This document shows, in pieces, positions 22,852-60,178 of a stretch of 64,000 bases of DNA. Numbering within the stretch: the stretch's first letter is position 1; every line of letters starts with the position of its first letter. Made by a program: the position numbers and the translations under genes. The notes under the pieces were generated by a model. The model was not told the DNA's origin, made no database searches, and saw nothing but the letters and a program-made list of their open reading frames with translations. The DNA comes from an uncultured Thermoplasmata archaeon (GTDB lineage Archaea; Thermoplasmatota; Thermoplasmata; UBA10834), in NCBI GenBank assembly GCA_964568665.1, contig CAZMPY010000026.1, positions 62,106 through 126,105 on the forward strand. The letters are read 5' to 3'.

Positions 22852-22865
22852 GCGGTTCCCGGTGC

Positions 22866-34418: not shown

Positions 34419-35501
34419 CGGTGTCCCCTCGCGGGTGCATCGTTCTCCTAAGATATAGTTGCGGCACACCTGAAAGAAGCACGCCCCCCTGCTACGCGGT
34501 TGTCCCTGTTTTTCGCACCGATCATTTGCGCTCTTTGTCATGCAGGCTAATCCACGCATTCCAATTCGCTTGCACTTTTCTTTCCGGTGCATAGCTCTGC
34601 TGTGGCCGGAGGTGGTCGCGAAATCACATGTCCCATGGCATCTGAATCACGTTGCGAATTACGCCTGATCGTCGTTCGATTTGAATGCGTGCTAGATGTG
34701 CGTGACAGCTGGTTCATCGAGCTCGAGAATTGCACTATTACTCCTTCGTTTCCAGCCGAGTTTAGGCGTGTACGATATTTATCAAGTGATGTGCGAGAGT
34801 ACTGCGACAGACACTATGTTGGTACTATACCTCACGATGGCCGTGCGATCTAGACGCTTGCTCGTACTGCTGGGTGGGGATTCGTTTTCGCCGATGTGTG
34901 GCCGTAATCTGGAAGTCATCCATATCCGTATGGCCAGATCTGCTTGGAATGTCTGCTGGATGGCCATGAAAGCATGTCTTGGAATCAGCATGGGTGGCCG
35001 TGGCTGATGGGTGCGGGTCTGATCTATTACGCGCGATGCATGGTACGTGTGAGCAAGGCGCGTAGAAATCGTGCGCCCGACGCCTGTGCCGCGATAGCAA
35101 TGAGCATGTGTGTCTGCCATCGTCGGACGAAAGTTTAGCTCATACAAGGAAAATAGGCGCAGATAACGGAACTAGCATGATGATTAATTGCAAAGTGTAT
35201 AATTGACATGATTTTCTTGCCCCCGTAGGGGCAAGTCTGAAAACCTCTTCACGGATCTCCTCTTTTTCCTGTCTAGCCTACCCGTTTTCGCCGCTTTTCT
35301 CTTGTCCATGACATTTCATGTCACGCTTTTACCGCCGTATTGGTGCTGGTGATGGGGGGTTCTGGGAGGTCGGAGTGTGAAACGTCAACAAATCGGGTAT
35401 TAGTTGCCGCTTTCTTGAGGGGTGTGAGGGGGGTGTAGGTGTCTGAGGGCAGTAAATTCTCAAAATGCGACATTTTTAAATAGGCGAAAATCGATTCTCT
35501 G

Positions 35502-35517
35502 TCGGACAATCGTCCGA
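35502..35517. promoter_or_regulatory. 6-4-6 palindrome at the expected transcription start of the recombinase gene
   Basis: TCGGAC-AATC-GTCCGA, about 25 nt downstream of the TTTTTAAA box. Confidence 0.55.
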
Positions 35518-35539
35518 AGTCTAGGGATGGGAAACTAGC

Positions 35540-36199
35540 ATGCGGAAGTATCTCAAGCAGGGCGAGCTCAAAGCTCTGTTAGAGGCGCCGAGGCGGATGC
35601 GAGACCGCCTCATCATCAAACTCCTTTACGAAACGGGGATGCGAGTCGGAGAGCTCGTTGCCTTGTCAATTGGTGACGTGGACCTCGAAGTCGGGGAGAT
35701 TTCCATACAGCAGGCGAAAAGGCACGAGGAGGGTCGCAAGGTCCCTATAGTCAATAGTTGGACCAAGGCGATGCTGCGGGACTATGTGGGGACTAGGAAG
35801 GTCCGGAAGGATCCGTTGTTCGTCTCAAACAAGCGCGGCCCGCTGTCGAGACGGCAGATCGAACGCCTTATCTCCAACTATGCCAGCATGGTCGGTATTG
35901 ACAAGGACAAGTGTCACCCACATGTGCTCAGGCACACCCATGCCGTGCATGCGCTCAAGTCGGGCATCGATCTGCGCACTCTGCAACAGAACCTTGGACA
36001 CTCCAGCATAGAGGTGACGGCGATCTACCTCACGATGGACATAGACGACAGAAAGGAGCAGTATTCGAAGCACCCGCTTCCTGGGATGGAGGGCGTGCCC
36101 GCCATCGAGGAGTCCGAAGCGAGGGACGCTCCGTTGGACGAGGCGTCCGTCGTCGCCTCGAGTCACACGAGCTCTTTCGTAATCTCAACTACGGTTTAG
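35540..36199 (+). CDS. Tyrosine recombinase, catalytic domain only (no N-terminal core-binding domain)
   Basis: ETGMRVGE (R), KRHEEGRKV (K), HPHVLRH (HxxR), LGHSS (H), TAIY (Y); 219 aa with the first Arg at residue 35; upstream frame closed. Confidence 0.9.
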   Translation: MRKYLKQGELKALLEAPRRMRDRLIIKLLYETGMRVGELVALSIGDVDLEVGEISIQQAKRHEEGRKVPIVNSWTKAMLRDYVGTRKVRKDPLFVSNKRGPLSRRQIERLISNYASMVGIDKDKCHPHVLRHTHAVHALKSGIDLRTLQQNLGHSSIEVTAIYLTMDIDDRKEQYSKHPLPGMEGVPAIEESEARDAPLDEASVVASSHTSSFVISTTV

Positions 36200-36264
36200 G
36201 TGCAGACTAAACAAGTGGTGATGAAACCTCTTCCGACTATACTTTTTAAGTACAGTCGTAAAAC

Positions 36265-36285
36265 GGCTTTCGTAAGCCACTTTTT
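36265..36285 (+). terminator. Hairpin plus T-tract after the recombinase gene
   Basis: GGCTT-TCGT-AAGCC then ACTTTTT. Confidence 0.5.
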
Positions 36286-36347
36286 GGGACAATCTTCGCT
36301 CGACGTTAGATTAACCTATAATAAGCCGCGAGCCTCTCTCCAAACGA

Positions 36348-37736
36348 ATGCAGAAAGAGTGGACCGAGAAGTACCGCCCGCGGTCTCTCTCAGATATCGT
36401 GGGCCATGAGTCCTCAGTGAGGCTCATGAGGCAGTGGGCCGAGGCTTGGAAGCGGGGGACGCCGCGCTCCAAGGCGCTTGTCCTGAGGGGAGAACCTGGC
36501 ACCGGGAAGACGAGTGCCGCCTTGGCACTTGCGAGCGATTTCGGCTGGGATGTGGTCGAGATGAACGCCTCGGACCACAGGAACGCCGATTCCATCCGCA
36601 GGGTGGCTGGTATGGGCGCGGTCAGCCAGACCTTCTCGCCCACGGGCGAGTTCCTGTCGTCGACGAAGGGCCGCATGAAGCTGATCATACTGGATGAGGC
36701 GGACAACCTGTTCGGGCGCGAGGATTACGGCGGCGCAAAGGCCATCGTGGACACGATCCGGGAGACGAGCCAGCCAATCATACTCATCGTCAACGACTAC
36801 TACGAGCTGTCGAGGAAGGCTTCAGCCATCAAGACGCTCGCAGACAAGGTGACGTTCAACCGGATGGACCGTCACTCTGTCGTGGGGGTTCTGGGCTCCA
36901 TATGTACCCGCGAAGGCGTTTCGTTCGATGCGGCCCTCTTGGACAAGATAGCCGTCAATGCGGGCGGGGACCTCAGAGCTGCGGTCAATGATCTCCAGAT
37001 GCTATTCGAGGGGCGCACTTCCGTGCTCGCGGGCGAGTCCGACATGCTCGGCAAGAGGAACCAAGAGAAGGAGCTGAACCAGGCGCTCAGAGCGGTCTTC
37101 GGCGCGAAGACCGTGCGCGAGGCCAGGGATGCCACCCTCGACCTCGATCTCACCCCTGAGGAGCTCGAGAAGTGGATAGAGGAGAACATCCCGCAGGAAT
37201 ACAGGTCCACGGACGAGCTCATCAGGGCGTTCGACTCGCTCTCGCGGTCCGATGTCTACCTTGGCCGGACGCGTCGGCTCCAGCACTACGGCCTGTGGTC
37301 CTATGCGAAGGAGATGATGACTGGGGGCGTCGCGCTATCGAGGGGGAGCATGCCCCGGCCCCAGGTCATGGAGTATCGGTTCCCGAGCTTCTTCATGATG
37401 ATGTCGCGCGCCAAGGGCAGGAGGGCGGCCAGAGAGGCGGTCTCGCGGAAGCTGGGGGCGCAACTGCGCACATCCTGGAAACGCGTGAACGAATCCTCGT
37501 TGCCCTACCTGTCCGCGATCGCGAAGAGGGATGAGGAGTTCCTCCTCAAGCTGTGCCTGGACGCTGAGCTGGACGAGGGCGATGTCGCGTTCATCCTCGA
37601 CACGGACCCGGACTCAGCGGCCGTGACCCGTGTCATCGCCAGGGCGAAGGAGGTCCGGACGGGGGAGACGACGGGGCCAGCCTCCGGGAAGAGGCCGAAG
37701 AAGTCCCCTGGAAAGAGGAGCCTCGCCGACTTCTAG
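36348..37736 (+). CDS. rfcL: Replication factor C large subunit
   Basis: WTEKYRP, GEPGTGKTS, EMNASD, LDEAD, GGDLRAAVNDLQ, C-terminal PIP-like SLADF. Confidence 0.95.
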   Translation: MQKEWTEKYRPRSLSDIVGHESSVRLMRQWAEAWKRGTPRSKALVLRGEPGTGKTSAALALASDFGWDVVEMNASDHRNADSIRRVAGMGAVSQTFSPTGEFLSSTKGRMKLIILDEADNLFGREDYGGAKAIVDTIRETSQPIILIVNDYYELSRKASAIKTLADKVTFNRMDRHSVVGVLGSICTREGVSFDAALLDKIAVNAGGDLRAAVNDLQMLFEGRTSVLAGESDMLGKRNQEKELNQALRAVFGAKTVREARDATLDLDLTPEELEKWIEENIPQEYRSTDELIRAFDSLSRSDVYLGRTRRLQHYGLWSYAKEMMTGGVALSRGSMPRPQVMEYRFPSFFMMMSRAKGRRAAREAVSRKLGAQLRTSWKRVNESSLPYLSAIAKRDEEFLLKLCLDAELDEGDVAFILDTDPDSAAVTRVIARAKEVRTGETTGPASGKRPKKSPGKRSLADF

Positions 37737-37746
37737 GAGGGTGGAA

Positions 37747-38676
37747 GTGGACCAAAGGACGATCGAGCACCTGGAGAGGCAACAGTACCGGATAGTCGGC
37801 GGGACCGGCGCCGTGAAGCTCTGCCACTGGATGCGCCAGAAACTCATCCATGGCCGTCCCTGCTACAAGGAGGAGTTCTACGGGATCGACTCTCACAGGT
37901 GCCTCCAGATGACCCCGGCGGTCAACATATGCAACTTCAGGTGCCTGTTCTGCTGGCGGTTCCACGGGATGACCGGTTTCGACAGTGCGGACTATCCCGC
38001 GCCCGAGGAGCTGCTGGACCGGTGCATCCAGGAGCAGCGGTTGCTCGTCTCTGGTTTCAAAGGGGACGAGCGCTGCGAAGAACGCCTCTGGGAGGAGTCG
38101 CGCAACCCGAACCAGGTCGCGATATCCCTCTCGGGCGAGCCGACGCTGTACCCCGAGCTCGGCGAGTTCATAGCCCTGTGCAAGAGGAGGGGCATGACCA
38201 CGTTCCTGGTCACGAACGGCTCTGTCCCGAAGGCGCTGGCCGAGCTGTCCACACTTCCGACGCAGCTCTATGTCACGGTCGCTGCGCCGAACAAGGATCT
38301 TTTCGAGAGGCTCTGCGTGCCGCAGTTCCCGCGCGCCTGGGACAACCTGCTCGAGACGCTGAGCCTGCTCCCGTCACTCTCCACCCGGACGGTCGTCAGG
38401 CACACCCTGGTGAAGGACTGGAACCTGGGCTGGGAGGACGAGTACGCGAAGCTGGACCGCATTGCCTCCCCCACCTTCGTGGAGTCGAAGGGCTACGTCT
38501 TCGTGGGGGACTCACGTACAAGGATGACGATAGACAACATGCCTTCGCACGCATCCGTCAGGGAGTTCTCTCTGAGGCTCTCGGAGATGCTGTCGATGGA
38601 CCTCCTGGCCGAGCGTGAGGACAGCCGGGTCGTGCTCGTCGGTGACAGGCGCGCCAGGCTCCGCGTGAGGGACTGA
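37747..38676 (+). CDS. taw1: 4-demethylwyosine synthase Taw1/TYW1 (radical SAM)
   Basis: AVKLCHW, FYGIDSHRCLQMTP, CNFRCLFCWR, ISLSGEPTLY; GTG start after AGGAGG. Confidence 0.93.
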   Translation: MDQRTIEHLERQQYRIVGGTGAVKLCHWMRQKLIHGRPCYKEEFYGIDSHRCLQMTPAVNICNFRCLFCWRFHGMTGFDSADYPAPEELLDRCIQEQRLLVSGFKGDERCEERLWEESRNPNQVAISLSGEPTLYPELGEFIALCKRRGMTTFLVTNGSVPKALAELSTLPTQLYVTVAAPNKDLFERLCVPQFPRAWDNLLETLSLLPSLSTRTVVRHTLVKDWNLGWEDEYAKLDRIASPTFVESKGYVFVGDSRTRMTIDNMPSHASVREFSLRLSEMLSMDLLAEREDSRVVLVGDRRARLRVRD

Positions 38677-41635: not shown

Positions 41636-41998
41636 TTGACCAAGATCCTCGTGGTGGATGATTCCGAGGCATTCAGGAAGGTTATGATAGAGCTGCTCGT
41701 GAGAGCAGGCTTCCATGATGTCGCCGAGGCGAAGGACTTCGACGAGGCCCTCGACAAGTTCAGACAGGAGAGGCCCAGGTTCACGTTCGTCGACATGATC
41801 CTGCCTGGGAAGTCCGGCGTGGACCTCACCAAGGCGCTGATCGCGATCGACCCCAACGCGACGATAATCGCCATGAGTTCGATCATCAACAAGACCATGA
41901 TCCGGCAGAGCCTGGACGCAGGTGCCAAGGACTTCCTCCTGAAGCCCACTAACACGATAGCCCTGAGCTCGGTCCTGGCGATGTGGAGTGATTGGTGA
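41636..41998 (+). CDS. Stand-alone response regulator receiver (CheY-like)
   Basis: ILVVDD, phospho-Asp FVDMILP..SG, AMSS, FLLKP. Confidence 0.92.
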   Translation: MTKILVVDDSEAFRKVMIELLVRAGFHDVAEAKDFDEALDKFRQERPRFTFVDMILPGKSGVDLTKALIAIDPNATIIAMSSIINKTMIRQSLDAGAKDFLLKPTNTIALSSVLAMWSDW

Positions 41999-42558
41999 TG
42001 AGCCTGTTCCATTTCAAGAGGCCAGGGGCGAGGAAGGACCACAAGGAGTCGGCCCTCGACATATCCCGCAAGTACTCGCTCAAACAGGGCCGGTCCTACG
42101 TGATCGAGGAGTCGCCCCCGGACATCAGCTTCGACGCGTTCGCCAACATCATCAACACGACGGACGAGAAGGGCGCGAAGAACGTCGGCCTGTGCATCAC
42201 GCGCCAGCACCCAGACCTGGTCCGGCAGAAGTACGGCATCGAGAAGACGCCGATATACTGGCTCGCGACCAAGACCGGCCAGGACATCATATCGCCCACG
42301 AACCTCGGCATACTAACGCACACGATCATCAGCTTCGTCCAGGACCACCAGAACGGGGTGGTCCTCCTCGACGGGCTCGAGTACCTGGTCTCGAACAACG
42401 ATTTCAACAAGGTCCTCAGGGTCATAGACCAGGTCAACGACCACATCTCCCAGAGCACCTCGAGGATGATCCTCCCGGTGGACCCGCGCGCGTTCGATCC
42501 GAAGGAGGTCGCCCTCCTCGAGCGGAACATGGAGAAGGTCCAGTTGTCCAAGGCGTAG
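41992..42558 (+). CDS. Stand-alone DUF835 (inactive KaiC/RecA-like) protein
   Basis: GLCITRQHP, IYWL, ISPTNL, VVLLDGLEYL..NNDF; coupled to the receiver gene. Confidence 0.85.
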   Translation: MVMSLFHFKRPGARKDHKESALDISRKYSLKQGRSYVIEESPPDISFDAFANIINTTDEKGAKNVGLCITRQHPDLVRQKYGIEKTPIYWLATKTGQDIISPTNLGILTHTIISFVQDHQNGVVLLDGLEYLVSNNDFNKVLRVIDQVNDHISQSTSRMILPVDPRAFDPKEVALLERNMEKVQLSKA

Positions 42559-42575: not shown

Positions 42576-44423
42576 CTAGGACGCGAGGAGCGCGGTCGCC
42601 GAGTATATCAGCTCGGACAGCACGATGCACGACCCCAGCGAGTACGCCAGTTGCCGCCTGCCCTTGCCGCCTTCGATGCCCCACACGAAGAACACCACCA
42701 CCGCGTTGATCTCGGCCAGGAACAGCCCGAGCACGAGGAACAGCGCATCGGCGGAGAAGCCACCGTCCCCCGCCCCGAGCGAGGACAACGACAGGTAGAT
42801 CGAGTATGTTATCCCGAGGACCAGCGGGCCCAGCGCGTGCGCGGTCATGCGCATCATCGATATCGTCGGCCTCAGCCTGCTCTTGAGCGTGCTCTCGAGG
42901 TCGTTCAGGTCCTTGAGGTAGTTCGCCAGGTCCATCGCCAGGAGACCCGCCGAGAGCTCGTCCTTCGACGCCGCCTCGCGGACGACCTGGAGCCCGGCCA
43001 GGGCGTTCAACCCCCCGCGGACGTCTTGCTCCCCGGCCCCCTCCGCGAACCCTTGGCCCATTATGCTCGTCCTGAGGGACAGGGCCCTCAGCCTCACGCC
43101 CTCCTCGCCATCGAGCTCGGAGGACGCCCTCGCCATGGCCGATTCGAAGTTCTCGCCCTCCAGCATCCTGGCGCCGGTCTTGAACAGGGCGTCCTCGAAC
43201 CCCTCCGAGGACCCGGCGCCTGCCATGCTTCTCATTCCCCCCGCCATCAAGAATGCGCCGACGGGGCAGGTCGTTCCCAGGAGCAGGCCCAGGGCCCTCT
43301 CGTGCCCCGACAGGAACATGAGCGACACCGCGGCCGCGCACGCGGCCGCGGCGGCTGCGGCCAAGACCAGCAGCCCGGAGTGTTCCATCGGCACGTCCGC
43401 GCGCCAGGGCCGCACGTCGAGCGGATGCCTCTGGACCGCATCCATGGCCACGAGGACCGCGATCGCGGGGAACAGGATGTTCATCAGGAATATCGTCTGG
43501 ACTATGGTCCCGCCCCCGGACGAGCCGAGGTCCGGGCCCGCCTCCACGCCGGCCCATAGGTCCCACGAGAGCATCGGCAGGAACGAGCCGACCATCAGAG
43601 GCAGGAGGATGCCGACGCCGAAGATCACCATGCTCGGCGTCGACAACGCAAGGGCGTACTCCTCTATCCTGCGCTTGGCCCCTGAGATCATCGCGTGGCT
43701 CGCCCGGTCGAGCGCCCTGCGCTTGCCCTCCTCCCTCGATTCGCATGCCGCCGTGACCATCGCGTTCAGCGAGGCCTTGAGGTCCCCGCTGAACCTGGAC
43801 CATCTCGCGCCCAGCGCCTGGAGCGCCTCCTCGAAGCTCGAGTGCTTTCCCATGACGACCTCCCAGACGGAAGCCTTCAGCTCCTCCGTGAACTCGTCCT
43901 CGCGCTGCATCGCGAACCTCATGGCCTTCGAGACGGAAGGCTCGTGCCTGAGGCTCATGATCATCAGGTTGGTGGCCGCCGTCGAGTCCTTCAGTATGCT
44001 CTGGGCGCGCTTTGCTGCGAGATTCGCAGGGTAGCCCATCACGGCCTCCCTGGCGAGGACGGGTACGACGGCGAGCAGGAATGCGAGCGGGACGATGTAC
44101 CGAGTGCCGGTGAGCAGGAACGCGACGGCAGCGGCCACGCCCAGCCCGAGCGCGGCAAGGAGCATGACCGTCTTCGAGGCGGCGACCACGGTCTCTGGCG
44201 TGAGAGGGACCCTCGCGAGGCTCAGGTTCTCCCCGAGCACCTTCATCGTGCGGTCGGCCTTGGCTGCCCTGCCGCTCTCGGCGCGCCCTCGGCCACCCCT
44301 TCTGGCGCTGGCGGCCTCCGCCCTTCCGGAGACGCCCAGGCCCGAACCGAGGCGCGCGAGTAAGGCGCATGAGCGCTCGTACATCTCACCGGGCCGCTTG
44401 ACGCAGGCACTAGCTCGACTCAA
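42576..44423 (-). CDS. Type IV pilus/T2SS-F platform membrane protein (TadC/ArlJ-like)
   Basis: Two cytoplasmic domains each followed by TM clusters (SLRHEPS, SFEEAL; MLEGENFESA, LRPTISMM); directly downstream of the pilus ATPase; exact start uncertain. Confidence 0.72.
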   Translation of the reverse strand: MSRASACVKRPGEMYERSCALLARLGSGLGVSGRAEAASARRGGRGRAESGRAAKADRTMKVLGENLSLARVPLTPETVVAASKTVMLLAALGLGVAAAVAFLLTGTRYIVPLAFLLAVVPVLAREAVMGYPANLAAKRAQSILKDSTAATNLMIMSLRHEPSVSKAMRFAMQREDEFTEELKASVWEVVMGKHSSFEEALQALGARWSRFSGDLKASLNAMVTAACESREEGKRRALDRASHAMISGAKRRIEEYALALSTPSMVIFGVGILLPLMVGSFLPMLSWDLWAGVEAGPDLGSSGGGTIVQTIFLMNILFPAIAVLVAMDAVQRHPLDVRPWRADVPMEHSGLLVLAAAAAAACAAAVSLMFLSGHERALGLLLGTTCPVGAFLMAGGMRSMAGAGSSEGFEDALFKTGARMLEGENFESAMARASSELDGEEGVRLRALSLRTSIMGQGFAEGAGEQDVRGGLNALAGLQVVREAASKDELSAGLLAMDLANYLKDLNDLESTLKSRLRPTISMMRMTAHALGPLVLGITYSIYLSLSSLGAGDGGFSADALFLVLGLFLAEINAVVVFFVWGIEGGKGRRQLAYSLGSCIVLSELIYSATALLAS

Positions 44424-46155
44424 ACCAATCCCTCCATTCTCTGAGCCCTGCCTCTGGCCCGTCCGCCCCGAAGAGCGTCCGCGTGAGTAGCTCGTTCGAG
44501 GCCACCCTCTTCGCCTCAGGCGACGGTGTGCCTCCCGGGCACTGGGACGCGATGTCGTCCGCGTGCGCCCGCGTCTTTATGATGTCCAGGAGCGCCTCAG
44601 GGGAGACCCCGAGGGCGTCCGCGGCCCCCACGATCGTCTTGCACGATGGTGAGAACTGCTCGGTGGGCTTCGCGCAGGTGCAGCCGGGCCGGATCTCGAA
44701 GAGGCTCACCAGCTCCACCCCGTGGCCCTTGTCCCGCACCTCCGCGACCTCGGTCACGCGCCTGTGGAACCTGGCACCGTCCGGCGACCTGATCAGGCCT
44801 ATCACGACGACGATGTCGGTGGACGAGAACGCCCGTTCCGAGACCCCCAGGTCCTCGACGGCCCTGTCGACGACGCCCTTGGCGGAGTTGCCGTGGATCG
44901 TGCCGAGCACCGATGACCCTGCGCTGCCCGCGCGCATGCTCTCGTAGAGCACCTTTGCCTCCTCCCCCCTCACCTCGCCGATCACGATCGCGCTCTCGCC
45001 CATCCTGAGGCTGACCCTGAGCGTGTCCTGGGCCGATATGTCCGCCCCGTCCTGGCCGTTGGAGAACCTGAGCGCCTGGAGGTCGAACCCGAGGTCCTGC
45101 AGTTTCCTGACGGGTATCTCGGGGGTGTCCTCTATGAGCACGATCCTCTGGGATAGCGGGAACTCGAGCAGCATGGCCCCGAGGAGCGATGTCTTCCCCG
45201 CCCCCCTGCTGCCCGCGACGAGCACCGTCCTGCGGCCCAGCACGCAGGCCCACAGGAAGCTCGCCAGGAGCGGGGACATCGAGCCGTTCGCTACCAGGCG
45301 AGGCATCGTCCACATCACATCGGAATGCTTCCTTATCGCGACGGACAGGCCTTTGTCGCTCAGCGGGGGCCCTACGACGGTCACCCTCGCGCCCAGGTGC
45401 CTCATGTCGGCCTCGAGCACAGGATGCGCCTCCGAGAACGGGAGACCTGTCTCGAACTTGACCCTCGAGACCATCCCGAGCAGGTCGCGTCTGCCGAGGA
45501 ATATGTTCGTCCGACACTTCTGTCGGACACCAGGCACCGCGCCGGACCGCAGCACGACCTGGACGGGCGTCTGACTGGATGGGGAGTCCACATAGATGTC
45601 TTGGACGGTCGGGTCCTCGAGGAGGGTCTCGAGCAGACCATACCCCGCGGTGTACTTCGAGAGCAGCTCGGCGAGGAAATCCGCATCCTTGTCGATCTCG
45701 CGTCCATCGGCGCCTCCGCCCTTCGCCGCGAGCTTTGCGTAGAGCAGGTCCTTCGCCCTCGCCTTGATGTACGGGCGGACCGTGCTCAGAGAGCCGGACT
45801 CTATGTCCGGGGGGACGATGCTGGTGACATCCGACATGGCCTCCCCGAGGATCTGCATCTGGGCCGGTCCGAGCCGGTATTCAGGAGGGTCGACCATGTA
45901 GAGCCCGCAGCTGGAGTCCTTCGGGGACATGATTGTCACAGTGACCCCCGCCACAGTGTACTTGGATACGACTGGCGCCTCGCCGGCCTCCGGCTGGACG
46001 ATCCATGACGACGAGAAGCAGGGCCGGGTCTCGAACACGGCGCGGGCGCGCGTGTCGCGCCCGCCCTCGTGCGTGACTAAAGGGACCGCGTTGACAGCCG
46101 GCCTTGACAGGGGCAGCTTCGAGCCGACGATCCGGGGAGGTCCTCTGCCAGGCAA
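44410..46155 (-). CDS. Type II/IV secretion ATPase (TadA/VirB11/ArlI family)
   Basis: GYGLLE.LL.DP..QDIYV, Walker A GSRGAGKTS, Asp box IEDTPE, IGEVRG, His box GTIHG. Confidence 0.92.
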   Translation of the reverse strand: MPGRGPPRIVGSKLPLSRPAVNAVPLVTHEGGRDTRARAVFETRPCFSSSWIVQPEAGEAPVVSKYTVAGVTVTIMSPKDSSCGLYMVDPPEYRLGPAQMQILGEAMSDVTSIVPPDIESGSLSTVRPYIKARAKDLLYAKLAAKGGGADGREIDKDADFLAELLSKYTAGYGLLETLLEDPTVQDIYVDSPSSQTPVQVVLRSGAVPGVRQKCRTNIFLGRRDLLGMVSRVKFETGLPFSEAHPVLEADMRHLGARVTVVGPPLSDKGLSVAIRKHSDVMWTMPRLVANGSMSPLLASFLWACVLGRRTVLVAGSRGAGKTSLLGAMLLEFPLSQRIVLIEDTPEIPVRKLQDLGFDLQALRFSNGQDGADISAQDTLRVSLRMGESAIVIGEVRGEEAKVLYESMRAGSAGSSVLGTIHGNSAKGVVDRAVEDLGVSERAFSSTDIVVVIGLIRSPDGARFHRRVTEVAEVRDKGHGVELVSLFEIRPGCTCAKPTEQFSPSCKTIVGAADALGVSPEALLDIIKTRAHADDIASQCPGGTPSPEAKRVASNELLTRTLFGADGPEAGLREWRDWFESS

Positions 46156-46692
46156 TCACACCACCCCTGGATGGAGCGCGCTTGCGGAGAGCGCCTGCTC
46201 GACACACTCGGCCGCTCTGGGACACCCTGCACCGGCCCCAAGCGCCCGGAGCCCGTCGGACATGCTCTGATGGGAATCGAGATAGTTGGCGGGGTCAGCG
46301 AGGAGCGCCCGCTTCATCCTGCCGACCAGGTTGTCCCTGCTGGCGCAGCATGTCCGACACCTCTTGTCGGACGGGCTCTCGTGGCAGGACAGCGCCCTCG
46401 TCAGGGACGAGAGTTCGAGCGCGGCCAGCTTCAGGCATCTGAGGGATTCTCCCCTGTAGCGTTTGTGCAGGTACCTCTTGAGGATGACTACATCCGGAGG
46501 GGCTGACGAGCTGACCGTGTTGACGATCCCGACGAGGCACTTGGCGTTCACCAGATCGTGGGCGCCGGGACATGAGCTGCAGTCGATCTCGAGCTGGAGC
46601 CCCTCGTCCTCCCGATACTCGTGCGGGCATGTGCTCTCCAGGTTCACAGTGGGTGCGAGCCTCTTGGACGGTCCTCTGCGGTGGTGTCGCAT
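46156..46692 (-). CDS. Cys-rich hypothetical protein upstream of, and in frame with, the pilus ATPase
   Basis: DCSSCPG..C, CRTCC, CPRAAEC; its TGA is followed immediately by the ATPase TTG in the same frame. Confidence 0.7.
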   Translation of the reverse strand: MRHHRRGPSKRLAPTVNLESTCPHEYREDEGLQLEIDCSSCPGAHDLVNAKCLVGIVNTVSSSAPPDVVILKRYLHKRYRGESLRCLKLAALELSSLTRALSCHESPSDKRCRTCCASRDNLVGRMKRALLADPANYLDSHQSMSDGLRALGAGAGCPRAAECVEQALSASALHPGVV

Positions 46693-46740
46693 ATCTGTCG
46701 GATTGTGCCTCGGAGTTCAAGTACGGGCCCCGCCGTTGTA

Positions 46741-46754
46741 CGCTACATGTAGCG
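46741..46754. promoter_or_regulatory. Perfect 14-bp palindrome between the divergent pilus gene blocks
   Basis: CGCTACATGTAGCG in the ~100-bp divergent intergenic region. Confidence 0.55.
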
Positions 46755-46790
46755 GTTCCGTACATTCCGACCCCTTCGAATCAGGCTCGC

Positions 46791-47243
46791 ATGAAAGCCG
46801 ACGATGCCGGGGTCGGAGGGTTCCTCGAAGACCTGCCAGTGCTGATGTTCGTGCTCGCAGGCGTGACGGTCCTGCTGTCGTCAGCGGTCTGGGCTGCGTC
46901 GTGGTTCGAGCAGGACCGGGGCGAGGAGTCCCTCGAGGACTCCGCCGAGAGGGTGCTGGAGACCGTGTTGTCCGGGCTCCCGTGCCCTCGCATGGGGTAT
47001 CCGACGGTCCAGGGCATCGTGGAATCGAACCTGACTGGCGCCGTGGAACAGTCAGCGCAGGGCGTGCATTGGCGGTTGGCCATCGTGATGCTGTACCCCG
47101 GTCCCGAGTGGCTCGTGTCGCTGTCAGATTGCGGGGTAGTCACTCCCGCATCCGCGTGCAGCGCTTCGAAGCTCCTGAGCGCATCGGGTCCCGACGGCGG
47201 CACGGTCGTCCTGGAGGTGACCGTTGTCGTCTGGTCGGCTTGA
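46791..47243 (+). CDS. Putative minor pilin (class III signal peptide-like)
   Basis: MKADDAG|VGGFLEDLPVLMFVLAGVTVLL: short charged leader, Gly, long hydrophobic helix. Confidence 0.62.
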   Translation: MKADDAGVGGFLEDLPVLMFVLAGVTVLLSSAVWAASWFEQDRGEESLEDSAERVLETVLSGLPCPRMGYPTVQGIVESNLTGAVEQSAQGVHWRLAIVMLYPGPEWLVSLSDCGVVTPASACSASKLLSASGPDGGTVVLEVTVVVWSA

Positions 47244-47778
47244 GAGCGAGTGCTCGGGGCAGCTCGCGCTCATGGATGCGATGGTGTTCTTCGCGGTCGC
47301 GCTGGCGGTGTGCTCCGCTACATTGGGCTACATGGACGACGGCGCCGCCGACGCGGACAGGTCTCAATGCGCCCGTGCCGATCCGTCCGCGGTGTTGGAG
47401 GTGTTCATGAGCTGCTCCCTCGGGTCCCCTGTGTCTCTGGACGGCCTGGTGCCGGTCGAGCTCACCGGGCGCGAGCAGGTCTGCGAATGCATACTCGCCG
47501 AGGCCTGGGCCCTCGAATCGGGGGCTGACATCGGGCGGTTCGCCGACCTTAACTCCGCCATCATGGGGGTCCTGAGGTCAGTATGCGCGCCTGGGTATGT
47601 CCCGCACCTCGTCGTGTATGTGCTCGATGAGTCCTCAGAGGGTCCGTTGATGGAAATCGAGGACCACCCGGCGCAGGCGCCTGACCGCCGTGCAGCGTCG
47701 ACAGTCCTGGCCGGTCCAGACGGGGGCGCCCTGCTCGTCTCACTTGTGCTTGAACCAGCCTCTTCGGGCCAGCTCTGA
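47224..47778 (+). CDS. Putative minor pilin (class III signal peptide-like)
   Basis: ...SG|QLALMDAMVFFAVALAVCS; overlaps the preceding pilin-like gene; start uncertain. Confidence 0.6.
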   Translation: MSSGRLESECSGQLALMDAMVFFAVALAVCSATLGYMDDGAADADRSQCARADPSAVLEVFMSCSLGSPVSLDGLVPVELTGREQVCECILAEAWALESGADIGRFADLNSAIMGVLRSVCAPGYVPHLVVYVLDESSEGPLMEIEDHPAQAPDRRAASTVLAGPDGGALLVSLVLEPASSGQL

Positions 47779-48090
47779 GAAGTCGGACTCGGTCGGCTTG
47801 ATCCTGGATTTCGAGTACCGTTCGCCCCGGGCGAGCTCCTTGGCCTGGACTATGAACATGGCCACTATGCCTCCCAGCGCCACATAGACGAACGCGCGGT
47901 CGTCCCTGCTCGTGCCGAGGTAGACCATCAGGAGCGAGAACCCCATGATGCCATACATCAGGTACGTTAGCTTCCCTGGAGGGATCGGTATGAGGGTCAC
48001 ATCCCCTCCGCACCTCGCGCACCTGTCCCGTATGGCGTACCAGGGCTTCGTCCTGAGCTCCTTGCACCTGGGGCAATAGGTGAACTTCAC
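47740..48090 (-). CDS. Small Zn-ribbon plus 2-TM membrane protein
   Basis: CPRC...CARC followed by two hydrophobic helices; coding-like codon usage. Confidence 0.7.
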   Translation of the reverse strand: MKFTYCPRCKELRTKPWYAIRDRCARCGGDVTLIPIPPGKLTYLMYGIMGFSLLMVYLGTSRDDRAFVYVALGGIVAMFIVQAKELARGERYSKSRIKPTESDFSELARRGWFKHK

Positions 48091-53386: not shown

Positions 53387-54268
53387 CTACCTGAACCCGC
53401 CCGTCATGTCGTACATGCTGGGGGGGCTGAAATCGGTCAGCCCGGGCGCGAGCCCGGCGTGCATGAGCTGCTCAGGAGCTTCCTGGGGCGGTGTCTGCAT
53501 CGGCTCGTCGTAGGTCTCGATGCCACCAGTCACATCCTCCATGAGGTTGCTCACATACGAGCTGGTCTTGTCGCAGACGGTCTCGACCAGCTTCATGACG
53601 CTCTTCTCCATGAGCCTCATGGCGTCGTTGAACGACACATCTGGCACCGATTCGAGGGTCTTGTTGTGGTCGAGCACGACCGTTATGTCGGCCTGCTCCC
53701 TCAACCTCCGTACACCCTCGATTGCGAGCTTCATCCTCTTCTCGCCCTCGAGGCCGAACGGGAGTATCGGCACGGCGAATGTGACCGCGTTGACCTCCTT
53801 CGCGGCGCTGGCGACGATCGGGGCGGCGCCCGTGCCTGTGCCTCCGCCCATGCCAGCGACTATGAACACGATATCGTGGCCCTTGAGCACTTCCTTAAGG
53901 ACCTCCCTTGACTTCTCGGCGCAGTGCTCCCCGATCTCGGGGAACCCTCCAGCGTCCTGGCCGAATGTGACATCCTTGCCGATCAGCACCTTCGTGTGCG
54001 CTTCGCATGCGCGCAGGTGCTCGTGGTCGGTGTTTACGGCCACGGTGTCGACACGGTTCGATTCACTGTAGATCCTGCTCACGATGTTCTGCCCGGCTCC
54101 CCCGACGCCGACTACGGCGATCGATGGTTCGCCCAGGCTCACCCCGAATGCGTGGATTATGTCCTCCGTCCTGCTCCCTTCCGTCATCCTTTTGGCCTCC
54201 GTCCTTCCCATCGGCTGGCCTCGGACGAGAACACCCGAGAGAGTGTCCTCACTTCCTTGGTCTGTCAA
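53387..54268 (-). CDS. Truncated FtsZ homologue (N-terminal GTP-binding domain and H7 only)
   Basis: GVGGAG, VNTD, AGMGGGTGTGAAP, PF..EG..R present; T7 region reads SYVSNLMEDV; no C-terminal domain; start 54268 (TTG) or 54211 (ATG). Confidence 0.85.
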   Translation of the reverse strand: MTDQGSEDTLSGVLVRGQPMGRTEAKRMTEGSRTEDIIHAFGVSLGEPSIAVVGVGGAGQNIVSRIYSESNRVDTVAVNTDHEHLRACEAHTKVLIGKDVTFGQDAGGFPEIGEHCAEKSREVLKEVLKGHDIVFIVAGMGGGTGTGAAPIVASAAKEVNAVTFAVPILPFGLEGEKRMKLAIEGVRRLREQADITVVLDHNKTLESVPDVSFNDAMRLMEKSVMKLVETVCDKTSSYVSNLMEDVTGGIETYDEPMQTPPQEAPEQLMHAGLAPGLTDFSPPSMYDMTGGFR

Positions 54269-54287
54269 GGCGCCCTCAAACGGTTGC

Positions 54288-54674
54288 CTACGCGTCAGGG
54301 ACGACCTTCATGGCGCTTCTCTGCTGCATCGCGTCCTTCTTAAGCGCCTCCACGTGCTCCGCGTGGAGGAACTTGTCCCGGGCGCAATCCGCCACTGCCT
54401 CGGATATCGAGCTATAGACACCCTCGGCTACCAGGTGTGCGATCATGTCCAGAACGAGTGGCGGCAGCGTGACCTCCACATCGTTCGGCTTCCTGGTCGT
54501 CCCCGTTGCACTGCCCGTCTTCGCCTCCACGTACGCGTGGATGGCGGCGCGGGCGAGTTGAGACCTGTTGGAGAACTCCGTGCTCCGGTTGATGAACTCG
54601 TCCAGCAACCGTAGCTCCTCGGCGTTGAGGCGGATCGTTATCCGCTCGTTCTCGTTCTCCGACGGGTCAGACAT
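54288..54674 (-). CDS. Tandem ribbon-helix-helix regulator (CdrS-like)
   Basis: Two RHH repeats: RITIRL..FSNRSQLARAAI and VEVTLP..YSSISEAVADCA; sits directly upstream of the ftsZ-like gene, as cdrS does in haloarchaea. Confidence 0.82.
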   Translation of the reverse strand: MSDPSENENERITIRLNAEELRLLDEFINRSTEFSNRSQLARAAIHAYVEAKTGSATGTTRKPNDVEVTLPPLVLDMIAHLVAEGVYSSISEAVADCARDKFLHAEHVEALKKDAMQQRSAMKVVPDA

Positions 54675-54714
54675 GTGTGCATCCCATCCCGATTTGCTGA
54701 CGCAAGGGGAACAT

Positions 54715-54839
54715 ATGTCGGACATTTGTATATATAGGTTCCGAAAACGTCACAATTTGTCTGATAATGTCCTACAGCATCCTGGCCGGTCCATCCGTCC
54801 AGGTTCATGGCCGATTCGTAGGCTCGATATGTCCTACAG
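54715..54839 (-). promoter_or_regulatory. Promoter with a phased operator array for the RHH-ftsZ operon
   Basis: ATGTC-G-GACAT palindrome 54715-54725; TATATAT 54729-54735; GTC cores at 54749, 54759 and 54769 (10-bp period); direct repeat ATGTCCTACAG at 54767 and 54829. Confidence 0.6.
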
Positions 54840-54919: not shown

Positions 54920-55219
54920 ATGAAGTGCAAGAACAAGGATGGGGACATCAAGCTTTCCAAACGGCCCACATTCCTGATGGTCGCAATCGGCATCAGCCTG
55001 TTCGTCGTTGGGTTCATCATCACGCTCACATCGATATCGGGGTCACATCTGGCTTCCGACGGTTCTGATTCGAATCTCGCGAGCGAGCCGACCGGGAGCT
55101 TCGGAGCGGACATGATGCTGTTCGTGGGCATCGCGCTGAGCCTCTCAGGCGTCGTTTTCGCAACGGCTGGTCCGGCCGTGTTCTTCATCCACAGGCGCAT
55201 GAAGCACAGGTCGATGTGA
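54920..55219 (+). CDS. Small 2-TM hypothetical membrane protein
   Basis: Two hydrophobic helices flanked by basic termini. Confidence 0.6.
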   Translation: MKCKNKDGDIKLSKRPTFLMVAIGISLFVVGFIITLTSISGSHLASDGSDSNLASEPTGSFGADMMLFVGIALSLSGVVFATAGPAVFFIHRRMKHRSM

Positions 55220-58351: not shown

Positions 58352-60178
58352 ATGACCTCTCGCACCGTTCTAATCTCGATTGTCCTATTCGCGTTGATGC
58401 TGTGCTCCGTCCCTTCGTCGACCAGTGCACTGGCTGACGGCGATGGCGCGGTCTATCTGAACACTAAGATGGTCGCGACAGGCTACGACACGATCGAAGG
58501 ATCCGGGAGTTTCAGCGCGACGTTCACGGGCGAGGCCGCGGTCGGCCTCCGGGTCGCGGTCGCGGGTGTGTACGGCGGGGACGACGGCATCATATCGACG
58601 GACGAGCTCAGGATGTTCCTCGGGGACTTCTCGGAGGAGGTCGCGGGCAGGTCCTACTGGGGGGTCGTCATCGACTCTACGACAGACTTCAACGCATCGA
58701 GCGAGGACGACATACTCGTGGCGACCGAGGGGGTCCTGTATGTGAACCTCAGCTCCGCAGCCGATGTGGTCATAGGGATGGACTTCTCGGGCAGCGGTCC
58801 CGGGGGTTCGAGGCTGATCCAGCTGTCCCAGGGACCCGTCGACCTGCTCCTCGATTCCCTGAACGCCACCGTCGGGTTCGAGCACACGGGCACGCTCCAT
58901 GTCCGGGACCGGGTCGTGATGCTCGGGCTCGGGAGCTATACGACGCCGGACCTCTCGGACGGCAGGGTCCGGGAACTGAGGACGCCAGCGGGGAACATCG
59001 CGTGGTACTCGTTCGACGGCGATGTCGAGTCGAACCGGCTGGTCCAGGAGGAGACCCTGACCTACGAGAAGTTCAGCGTCATGGAGAACCAGCAGCTGTC
59101 GTTCGTGGTCGTGCTCATCGGATCCATACTGGTGCTCAGGATGCCCGCGACGAGGTTCGAGAAGTACAGGCTCCTGCATCCGAAGAAGTTCCGCAGGTTC
59201 GCGAAGCCACTGATATCGGTGCGCGCAAGCATGTACGCGATCGTGGCCTTTCTCTCGGTCATATACCTCCTTCCCTACCTGTTCGCCGTCGGGTCCCCGA
59301 ACACGATCCTCTATTCGTCCTACCTGTTCTTCATCGTCCCGGGCGCGGTCTTCATGGAGTACCTCATATCGAGGACGCTCTATGGCAGGGCCGCCCTGGA
59401 CATACCCGAGGAAACGGTGATCGAGGTGAAGCAGGCGCTGGTCGAGGAGAAGGCCCCGGAGGCGCTCTGCGAAATCTGCTTCAAGTCGATCGACACGCCC
59501 CTCGAGAAGATGCTCTGCCCCGGCTGCGGCACGCATCTGCACACCGCATGCGCGGAGCGGACGCAGTTGTGCCCCTCGTGCGAGGCGGTCCTCTTCCCGC
59601 ACAGGACCAGGTCGATCGAGTGTATGAAGTGCGGGGAGACATTCCTGTACACTGGCCCTGACGAACCGTACGCCGTGCAGTGCACGAGGTGCGGGGCGTT
59701 CCAGGAGGATGTCAAGGCCGGGGTCAACTACCTCGTGGTCGACCAGGACTCCAGGAACGCTTACATGATGATACGCGCGATGGGCATGTCCGGGCGTCCG
59801 GCCCTCGTGCTCACTGCGAACTTCCCAGGGAAGGTGAGGAGCGAGTACGACCTCGGCGAAGGTGTGGAGATCAAGTGGTTCTCGGACAGCTCCACGGACA
59901 TAGACAACATCAACCCGAAGGACCTGGACGGGGACGCGATGGAAATCGCATCGACCTTCCTGATGACGACCAAGGCATCGGGCCTGCTCCTGGACGGCGC
60001 GGACTTCCTGGCCAAGGAGAACGGCTTCGGCGCCGTCTACGCGTTCATAAGGCGGCTGAACGACCTCGCGGCGATCCATGGCGCGACGATCATCATGGCC
60101 CTCGACCGGGCCACGTTCTCGGAGGACGAGGTGACGAAGATCACCGACGAGTTCGACGAGATCCACGACTACACTTAG
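58352..60178 (+). CDS. Membrane protein: exported N-terminal domain, 3 TM, PHD/RING-like and Zn-ribbon fingers, C-terminal DUF835
   Basis: Signal peptide; TMs; CEIC..CPGC..H..C..CPSC; CMKC..CTRC; LVLTANFP..IKWF..INP..LLLDGADFL..NGF. Confidence 0.75.
   Translation: MTSRTVLISIVLFALMLCSVPSSTSALADGDGAVYLNTKMVATGYDTIEGSGSFSATFTGEAAVGLRVAVAGVYGGDDGIISTDELRMFLGDFSEEVAGRSYWGVVIDSTTDFNASSEDDILVATEGVLYVNLSSAADVVIGMDFSGSGPGGSRLIQLSQGPVDLLLDSLNATVGFEHTGTLHVRDRVVMLGLGSYTTPDLSDGRVRELRTPAGNIAWYSFDGDVESNRLVQEETLTYEKFSVMENQQLSFVVVLIGSILVLRMPATRFEKYRLLHPKKFRRFAKPLISVRASMYAIVAFLSVIYLLPYLFAVGSPNTILYSSYLFFIVPGAVFMEYLISRTLYGRAALDIPEETVIEVKQALVEEKAPEALCEICFKSIDTPLEKMLCPGCGTHLHTACAERTQLCPSCEAVLFPHRTRSIECMKCGETFLYTGPDEPYAVQCTRCGAFQEDVKAGVNYLVVDQDSRNAYMMIRAMGMSGRPALVLTANFPGKVRSEYDLGEGVEIKWFSDSSTDIDNINPKDLDGDAMEIASTFLMTTKASGLLLDGADFLAKENGFGAVYAFIRRLNDLAAIHGATIIMALDRATFSEDEVTKITDEFDEIHDYT

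Follow-up and report, generated by a model that had tools for sequence, protein, structure and literature searches.

A short FtsZ gene and its neighborhood

The window, by which we mean the whole 64-kb stretch of DNA analyzed here, carries on its minus strand a gene for a shortened FtsZ homolog. The longest open reading frame, which a sequence-only reading had taken as the gene, spans positions 53387..54268 on the minus strand, begins with TTG, and has 293 amino acids. The reading frame stands, but its start does not. Translation probably begins at the ATG at position 54187 (M28 of the longer form), which gives a coding sequence at 53387..54187 on the minus strand and, by checked translation, a product of 266 amino acids followed by a stop codon. 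We took this ATG as the start because of an invariant Shine-Dalgarno block and because of database gene calls. In an alignment of the spacer from seven lineages, the ATG is invariably preceded by a GGAGG Shine-Dalgarno sequence, the two together forming the invariant ACGGAGGCCAnnAG-GATGAC block, and the database entry for the window's own protein (P0001, 266 amino acids, 100% identity) starts at the same codon. An open reading frame beginning at TTG 54268 would cross a conserved noncoding leader. Residue numbers below refer to the 266-residue form, except for one Pfam span that is marked as such. The GC3 of the gene is 0.82, similar to that of the adjacent genes.

Upstream of the leader (54188..54287, minus strand) lies a CdrS-like RHH gene with a C-terminal extension (54288..54725, minus strand), probably encoding 128 amino acids from the ATG at 54674, with an open reading frame maximum of 145. 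Its product matches the Pfam families RHH_8 and RHH_1 over two stretches; the best specific NCBIfam match is to haloarchaeal CdrS, below the cutoff, and there are weak matches to ParD/NikR-type models. Between the RHH gene and the gene for LeuRS, on the plus strand, is an open reading frame of 99 amino acids (54920..55219) whose translation has two hydrophobic segments, as expected of two transmembrane helices, and which is 42% identical by tblastn to a 96-residue open reading frame at a related locus (L002). An open reading frame of 79 to 110 residues occupies this position in every main-family locus examined, and at a Methanomassiliicoccales locus (L033) no such frame was called there. We treat this small gene as context, and its link to the short FtsZ module is unproven.

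About 17 kb of the window is colinear with a 1.97-Mb contig, CP070732.1. Across this block, identities between the two are 70% for LeuRS, 72 to 76% for the POR subunits, 68% for the RHH protein, 60% for the short FtsZ, and 54% for the NAD kinase-like protein, so the short FtsZ has changed about as fast as the housekeeping genes around it. The order LeuRS, small open reading frame, RHH gene, short FtsZ, (NAD kinase), POR was found in every main-family lineage examined, and it recurs, with no call for the small open reading frame, in the Methanomassiliicoccales genome of L033.

The protein has the FtsZ GTP-binding domain and lacks the C-terminal domain

The short protein is a member of the FtsZ/tubulin superfamily, having a PF00091 domain, the GGGTGTG signature, and the fold of an FtsZ N-terminal domain. 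Pfam assigned PF00091 only, at residues 49 to 206 of the 293-residue form (E = 5.5e-40, 138 bits against a cutoff of 33), with no match to PF12327 (FtsZ_C). Against the FtsZ equivalog model TIGR00065, the protein scored 205.9 bits (1e-60), below the cutoff of 295.2, and aligned to model positions 17 to 204 of 353 only; a full-length Thermoplasmata FtsZ, P0382, scored 365.7. A sequence search of the PDB gave a similar picture: the best match was M. jannaschii FtsZ1 (E = 1.1e-42) over the N-terminal subdomain and helix H7 only, and the PDB alignments reach FtsZ residue ~230 at most. Measured against a bona fide FtsZ, it falls below the TIGR00065 cutoff and has neither PF12327 nor the NxDxx[DE] sequence of the T7 synergy loop, which activates GTP hydrolysis in the adjoining subunit.

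The missing half is not encoded nearby. With three full-length FtsZ proteins as queries, tblastn picked up the N-terminal domain at 54136-53570, and every frame of the 64-kb window was negative for the C-terminal domain. Likewise, no FtsZ_C was detected in any frame of nine related loci with 3 to 10 kb of flank on each side, in a search whose positive control worked. The sequence-only reading had described a degenerate T7 loop, an absent C-terminal domain, and no sign of a frameshift, and on all three points the analysis bears it out. A frameshifted or split gene is ruled out by the searches for FtsZ_C in the window and the nine loci. An open reading frame of 133 to 135 residues found directly downstream in some lineages (L020 and L030) was considered as a detached FtsZ C-terminal domain and rejected, as it has no resemblance to one and no Pfam match.

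The short architecture is conserved across Thermoplasmata

The truncation is shared by relatives, as the earlier reading had proposed should be checked. In a search of 5.8 billion proteins, the best 120 matches were all 252 to 288 amino acids long with PF00091 only; apart from P0001, the window's own protein at 100%, they were 56 to 67% identical to the query and came from Thermoplasmata and Thermoplasmatota metagenome-assembled genomes. A profile built from more distant short clusters gave a further best 120 proteins, again with PF00091 only and 239 to 319 amino acids long, many of them from Methanomassiliicoccales. Hundreds of 90%-identity clusters share the short length. A full-length close relative was not encountered, since every relative found down to about 35 to 45% identity has the same short architecture. 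In a separate contig search with the short FtsZ protein, the only FtsZ among the matches listed was an unrelated one from Verrucomicrobia.

Two Logan assemblies from independent read sets (L004 and L005) contain the same gene at 99.1 to 99.5% nucleotide identity and with the same stop codon, the differences being two synonymous and one nonsynonymous; an assembly error is thereby ruled out. The truncated length is all that would suggest a pseudogene, an ftsZ that is frameshifted or split, or an artifact of assembly. The identical stop codon in independent assemblies, the hundreds of clusters of the same length, the neighbor-like GC3, and the lack of FtsZ_C in the window and the nine related loci all speak against such an origin, which we consider exceedingly improbable. 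This half-FtsZ is a real gene under selection, conserved across Thermoplasmata.

Loops, helix H7, and the C-terminal tail

An AlphaFold2 model was built from 53 family members, among which mean column identity is 69%. Its mean pLDDT is 76, rising to about 85 to 97 over the GTP-binding domain (the confident part being residues 23 to 180). The N-terminal Rossmann-type GTP-binding domain, with loops T1 to T6, covers residues 22 to 180 (53648..54124, minus strand) by PF00091, the model, and Foldseek, which aligned about 188 columns to FtsZ N-terminal domains at a root mean square deviation of 1.6 to 1.8 Å. The nucleotide-binding motifs are intact, as the sequence-only reading had stated and translation confirms: GVGGAGQN (T1) at residues 27 to 34, NTD (T2) at 52 to 54, GGGTGTG (T4, the tubulin signature) at 114 to 120 (53828..53848, minus strand), and PFGLEGEKR (T5) at 143 to 151. 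The patterns G.GGAG.N (T1), NTD (T2), GGGTGTG (T4), PF..EG..R (T5), and LDNN.L (T6) are invariant in the 53 members, and GGGTGTG is invariant in all short families.

Loop T3 reads GQDAGGFP (residues 76 to 83; 53939..53962, minus strand), altered as had been noted, with D78, G81, and P83 invariant in the main family. We compared the group consensus of the main short family, the other short families, full-length Thermoplasmata FtsZ, and M. jannaschii FtsZ1. Only one of the two T3 changes proved peculiar: the Gly-to-Asp change is confined to the main short subfamily, whereas Phe or Tyr in place of Asn, the residue found in M. jannaschii FtsZ1, is common to full-length Thermoplasmata FtsZ proteins. 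The short families are further marked by a His/Tyr-Cys pair following T3. In the same comparison, the motifs of the top face, T3, T5, and T6, are kept while the NxDxxD of T7 is replaced. The NLDYAD of full-length FtsZ corresponds to S-S-L-M-E-D (SNLMED in the window), with the last acidic residue alone kept. This remnant, VSNLMEDV, lies at residues 212 to 219 (53531-53554, minus strand) and is predicted by AlphaFold2 to be helical. It forms part of helix H7 (residues 186 to 226; 53510..53632, minus strand, from the AlphaFold2 secondary structure and the alignment), predicted as a single 41-residue helix that runs through the former T7/H8 position. In H7, S209, S210, Y211, and V212 vary little or not at all among the 53 members. 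What is lost, then, is the T7 loop, H8 to H10, and S7 to S10; what is kept is the nucleotide-binding subdomain, H7, and a disordered tail.

The tail covers residues 227 to 266 (53390..53509, minus strand) at pLDDT below 50. The earlier reading counted about 45 low-complexity residues after the T7 remnant. The length is about right, as 47 residues follow VSNLMEDV before the stop codon, but the segment is better described as disordered with a conserved motif than as low in complexity. The motif takes the form [LM][IM]HA followed by a hydrophobic residue; it is LMHAGL in the window (53450-53467, minus strand) and LIHADL or LIHASI in relatives. Residues H243, A244, and P255 do not vary, and conservation is 90% or more at P248, F253, G254, and F259. 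Over a longer stretch, the main family reads LIHADLDPM..GFGPSMFG, Methanomassiliicoccales PEAELIHASIGEL, and the window LMHAGLAP. Among 142 short proteins, 76 have the motif, and the full-length controls gave 1 of 119 and 2 of 109. A GID sequence is the C-terminal motif by which archaeal FtsZ binds SepF (PMC8178401); the idea that the tail is a degenerate form of that peptide is not supported, as [LM][IM]HA.. differs from it and is specific to the family. The window copy is the most divergent of the members examined, departing from the others at 19 positions where conservation is 90% or more. Its changes include LDHNKT for LDNNKL, Glu for the H7 Asp, and LMHAGLAP for LIHADLDP.

The family-specific tail motif, conserved across orders, and the conserved small gene for two predicted transmembrane helices beside the module might be taken to indicate an adaptor or decoy. 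Its main activity would lie in the tail, with SepF, a PRC-barrel protein, or the small membrane protein next door as the division protein bound, and the GTP domain would only modulate availability. The globular domain is, however, far better conserved than the tail, and the acidic residues of the motif are lost in the window copy. We regard such a function as quite improbable.

Relation to full-length FtsZ and FtsZ2

Among 1.84 billion representative proteins, the closest full-length relative is P0127 (386 amino acids), which is 46% identical over the N-terminal domain. Its own relatives, at 75 to 94% identity, are 360 to 400 amino acids long, contain PF00091 and PF12327, end in NIDF[VI][RK], and are named as FtsZ of Thermoplasmata or Thermoplasmatales. 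Full-length FtsZ of this type is widespread in Thermoplasmata, and the gene order at its locus is S6e, eIF2-beta, a CdrS-like RHH gene of 75 codons, FtsZ, and an amino-acid kinase. The best NCBIfam match of the 75-residue RHH protein is haloarchaeal CdrS. In published surveys, ftsZ2 is associated with an upstream RHH/ParD-like gene (PMC9871819; PMC8178401), and the sequence-only reading had placed the short gene in the slot of ftsZ2 after cdrS. A CdrS-like RHH gene does lie upstream, but it is a longer paralog. Since the canonical pair of 75-residue CdrS-like protein and full-length FtsZ stands separately, the short gene represents a paralogous module and not the ftsZ2 slot; together with its longer RHH partner, it looks like a paralogous copy of a cdrS-ftsZ2-like module.

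In a neighbor-joining tree of N-terminal domains, all short clusters fell among the FtsZ2-like sequences with 'VLDNN' and apart from M. jannaschii FtsZ1 and the bacterial sequences with 'IPN[DE]KL'. Bootstrap values were 74% for the main short family and 25% for all short clusters together, with none at deeper nodes. Support in this tree, which held no experimentally labeled FtsZ2 sequence, is thus modest and extends neither to a specific sister group nor firmly to the monophyly of all short clusters.

When NCBI accessions and sample identifiers were matched, no genome with both a short and a full-length FtsZ was found. Pende et al. reported at least two FtsZ homologs and SepF in most Thermoplasmata genomes, and Liao et al. 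counted six tubulin-family proteins in Methanomassiliicoccus luminyensis. For Thermoplasma acidophilum, the supplement to the latter study describes an 'unusual FtsZ pair' in which neither is clearly an FtsZ2 (10.1101/2020.06.04.133736). All three reports are indirect support for the presence of both forms in one genome.

Most archaea have two FtsZ paralogs with distinct roles (10.1101/2020.06.04.133736), and that usual pairing, together with the Thermoplasma pair, could be cited for a short protein that is itself a cytoskeletal or scaffold subunit. Such a subunit would self-assemble, or assemble one to one with full-length FtsZ, by means of the extended H7 and the tail, and would functionally stand in for a second FtsZ in the lineage, with its tail bringing it to the membrane. 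The 41-residue helix of the model and the conserved tail motif fit this proposal. The bottom face, which is needed for head-to-tail polymerization, is nevertheless absent, and its absence argues against homopolymerization; the tail motif differs from the archaeal 'GID' motif for SepF binding (PMC8178401), and Thermoplasmata also possess a full-length, canonical FtsZ whose tail has NIDF. We therefore rate a scaffold subunit as distinctly unlikely.

The CdrS-like partner and the leader RNA

A CdrS-like RHH gene of 121 to 148 codons was found upstream of the short FtsZ gene in 10 of 10 lineages examined, and its product is 66 to 77% identical in five of them. These long RHH proteins share the N-terminal RHH domain with the 75-residue CdrS-like protein and add an extension of about 60 amino acids. 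On contig CP070751.1, the surroundings are different, yet a 133-residue RHH protein is still encoded just before the short FtsZ. This persistence of the linkage where the genomic context differs argues for functional coupling of the two genes.

Such coupling raises another explanation, that the short FtsZ is a nucleotide-sensing switch with no action on filaments, its GTP domain working with or on the CdrS-like RHH protein. It might bind the C-terminal extension of that protein in the manner of a type II toxin-antitoxin pair, making transcription of division genes responsive to the guanine-nucleotide state, or the two might be a domesticated division-checkpoint pair. The RHH gene is an invariable neighbor, also in the different context, and the layout of its product, a DNA-binding RHH domain at the N terminus followed by an extension that the 75-residue protein does not have, resembles that of antitoxins; the weak ParD/NikR-type matches also speak for it. 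Mobile toxin-antitoxin loci differ, however, from a module that is vertically inherited across orders within a housekeeping neighborhood, and a pure sensor would not need the FtsZ interface loops T3, T5, and T6 that have been retained. A switch of this kind thus seems to us unlikely.

The leader between the two genes is about 100 nucleotides long and appears to be structured. Its first block, GCAACCGTTTGAGGGCG, directly follows the RHH stop codon, and its second, ACGGAGGCC, contains the Shine-Dalgarno sequence; both are invariant in seven lineages, with a variable hairpin between them. In the structure obtained with RNAalifold, block 1 pairs with the Shine-Dalgarno sequence and encloses two inner helices that show compensatory changes. 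Across the seven sequences, 88.6% of cells were paired, against 39 to 58% when the partners were slid, and nine pairs showed double changes, against 3.7 ± 1.3 in shuffles, with none of 500 shuffles reaching nine. No Rfam family matched the leader. With seven sequences, and a structure derived from the same alignment, these results are no more than suggestive of a leader RNA that occludes the ribosome-binding site of the short FtsZ. An occluding leader would fit a protein whose dose has to stay low.

A proposed filament-capping function

Within an FtsZ protofilament, each subunit's N-terminal face, which bears the nucleotide, abuts the T7/H8/H10 face of its neighbor, whose T7 loop completes the GTPase site. 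FtsZ mutants in which the top face is intact and the bottom face dead were reported by Du et al. in 2018 (PNAS) to poison assembly at substoichiometric levels. The C-terminal interface is the plus end of FtsZ and is where MciZ, MipZ, and MinC cap it (PMC9897490).

The sequence-only reading had suggested a filament cap or nucleotide-sensing modulator, an idea that makes structural sense. Against this background, we tentatively favor a reading with two parts that, taken jointly, falls somewhat short of an even chance: that the short FtsZ is a genuine, vertically inherited archaeal FtsZ paralog that lost the whole C-terminal subdomain, and that it acts as a GTP-bound, nonextendable subunit docking on the T7, or plus-end, face of full-length FtsZ. 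The short protein would bind GTP through its intact T1 to T6 and H7 elements and, because these are intact, would still present the 'top' longitudinal face. Without a 'bottom' face, it would neither activate the GTPase of a neighbor nor accept a further subunit, so it would add once to the plus-end face of an FtsZ protofilament and end its growth. Capping might in this way limit filament length or mark the filament end, and the LIHA motif of the tail could tie the capped end to a partner protein. Expression would be tightly set by the upstream CdrS-like RHH regulator and by the pairing of the leader RNA with the ribosome-binding site. What has been shown here is the domain architecture, how widely it is conserved, the linkage of the genes, and the kept motifs; GTP binding, docking on FtsZ, capping, the part played by the tail, and the regulation are inferred.

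Several results are consistent with capping: the domain architecture, its conservation with invariant GTP motifs and with the top-face motifs T3, T5, and T6 retained, the lasting linkage to the RHH gene, the leader RNA that appears to sequester the Shine-Dalgarno sequence, the widespread occurrence in Thermoplasmata of a candidate target in full-length FtsZ, and the precedent of the plus-end cappers (PMC9897490). Other observations weigh against it. The nucleotide pocket or the longitudinal interface could be affected by the Gly-to-Asp change in T3 and the invariant His-Cys after it, as well as by the LDHNKT and the H7 Glu of the window copy. Strong inhibition would be expected of a stoichiometric cap at the growing end, but the gene is constitutively retained in a housekeeping setting. 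Both the length of H7 and the conservation of the tail hint at contacts of another kind, and accession matching yielded no genome shared by the two forms.

Comparison with known systems and significance

The nearest known counterparts are the FtsZ proteins of the haloarchaeal cdrS-ftsZ2 and P0127 type, with which the short FtsZ shares an N-terminal domain at 43 to 46% identity, the 'VLDNN[KR]L' of T6, Phe or Tyr in T3, and a CdrS-homologous RHH gene immediately upstream. It differs from them in having no T7 loop, FtsZ_C domain, or GID/NIDF peptide, in an RHH partner about twice as long, and in its gene neighborhood. With CetZ and TubZ the resemblance is slight. Membership in CetZ is ruled out by the PDB sequence search (E = 3.5e-12 for 4b45 and 3.7e-07 for 4b46, against 1e-42 for FtsZ), in which the TubZ matches were likewise far weaker than those to FtsZ. 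FtsZl1 and FtsZl2 (Makarova and Koonin 2010) are also FtsZ-superfamily proteins without the canonical C-terminal domain. FtsZl1 is much more divergent, as it aligns to H5 only, is missing T6-H7, and has coiled-coil and alpha-helical domains at its C terminus (PMC2875224), whereas the short FtsZ has a near-canonical N-terminal domain. The presence of T6 (LDNNKL) and H7 rules out membership in FtsZl1 as described there.

In their predicted outcome, a blocked plus-end interface, the engineered bottom-face mutants and MciZ, MipZ, and MinC are alike to the short FtsZ (PMC9897490), but the mutants are laboratory point mutants and the three cappers are unrelated small proteins, whereas the short FtsZ is predicted to be a natural, FtsZ-derived cap acting through the native interface. 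Plant ARC3, a protein with an FtsZ-like domain that inhibits assembly of the plastid Z ring (10.1101/2024.01.08.574726), offers a functional analogy, as it is derived from FtsZ, is no longer a full FtsZ, and is a direct negative regulator; it differs in its added middle and MORN domains, its eukaryotic and plastid location, and its independent origin. The best Foldseek match of the model was 1w5f, the domain-swapped T. maritima FtsZ reported by Oliva, Cordell, and Löwe in 2004. The isolated N-terminal subdomain of FtsZ reportedly folds independently in vitro, according to the same authors in the same year. Their half-FtsZ was a laboratory construct, whereas the half-protein here is a natural gene product.

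In full-text literature searches and in the key papers on archaeal division that we read, we found no description of an FtsZ family in Thermoplasmatota that lacks the C-terminal domain. The family is real and widespread, and its function is unproven. Short members are annotated as 'cell division protein FtsZ' or 'hypothetical protein', and with these labels, counts of FtsZ paralogs in Thermoplasmata may mix two very different things. We also know of no negative regulator that acts at filament ends in archaea. It is conceivable, though on the doubtful side, that Thermoplasmata carry an FtsZ-derived 'terminator subunit', a natural plus-end cap with its own CdrS-like regulator and an occluding leader, that sets the length of Z filaments or serves as a division checkpoint. 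If true, this would be the first endogenous cytoskeletal cap in prokaryotes to copy the polymer subunit itself in truncated form. The parts list of archaeal FtsZ-based division is still growing, and a half-FtsZ that is conserved class-wide and has a regulator of its own offers a concrete candidate that can readily be put to the test. Should capping prove true, the short FtsZ would be an example of a polymer subunit that evolved into a regulator of its own polymer.

Leader and putative upstream regulator of short ftsZ

The spacer between the upstream RHH (CdrS-like) gene and short ftsZ, at 54188-54287 on the minus strand, is a conserved, structured intergenic leader with equivalent spacers in six related loci that carry short ftsZ orthologues (L002, L007, L020, L030, L031, and L032). 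Across all seven spacers, two blocks are invariant, one immediately 3' of the RHH stop codon and the other comprising the Shine-Dalgarno (SD) region of short ftsZ, and the inner helices of the leader show compensatory changes. In the predicted fold, the block following the stop codon pairs with the SD block of short ftsZ. The leader gave no match to Rfam.

The RHH gene itself (54288-54725, minus strand) encodes the putative upstream regulator, which is paralogous to the CdrS-like protein of 75 aa encoded immediately before full-length FtsZ in Thermoplasmata. It carries an additional C-terminal extension of ~60 aa, which Pfam identifies as a second RHH-like stretch. In its layout, the protein is reminiscent of an antitoxin.

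Small ORFs and FtsZ fusions

Between the RHH gene and the leucyl-tRNA synthetase (LeuRS) gene lies a small ORF of 99 aa with two predicted transmembrane helices (54920-55219, plus strand), which was found at all examined loci of the main short-FtsZ family; the window and L002 copies are 42% identical. Some lineages carry an extra ORF of 133 to 135 aa directly 3' of short ftsZ (L020, 3314-3715; L030, 3824-4231) that has no counterpart in the window. This ORF gave no match to Pfam, and it was rejected as a candidate FtsZ C-domain. Separately, distant matches in the representative library included unusual FtsZ fusions (P0121, P0122, P0123, P0129, P0138, and P0203). Tandem double full-length FtsZ proteins span 731 to 840 aa, whereas P0138 fuses FtsZ to RHH and P0203 fuses it to a winged helix.

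Other genes of the window

Three large ORFs lacked Pfam matches, those of 795 aa (21340-23727, plus strand) and 615 aa (42576-44423, minus strand) at a threshold of 1e-3 and that of 457 aa (31620-32993, plus strand) at 1e-5. An ORF of the phage-integrase family (35540-36199), just 219 aa long, adjoins an RFC-like AAA+ gene. GC3 is low in the ORFs flanking it, at 0.44 to 0.57 versus about 0.85 elsewhere, and the region (34782-38618) may be what is left of an integrated element. The window also encodes two DUF835 proteins, both on the plus strand: the first (41992-42558) comes after a response-regulator receiver gene, and the second, a large protein (58352-60178), adjoins LeuRS and is kept in the syntenic block of CP070732.1, a 1.97-Mb contig. 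Syntenic with the same contig is a conserved cluster (42576-48090; 16.8 to 20.8 kb in L002) in which a T2SSE-type ATPase is accompanied by several small ORFs that gave no Pfam match; the cluster resembles a locus for a type IV pilus or an archaellum-like structure.
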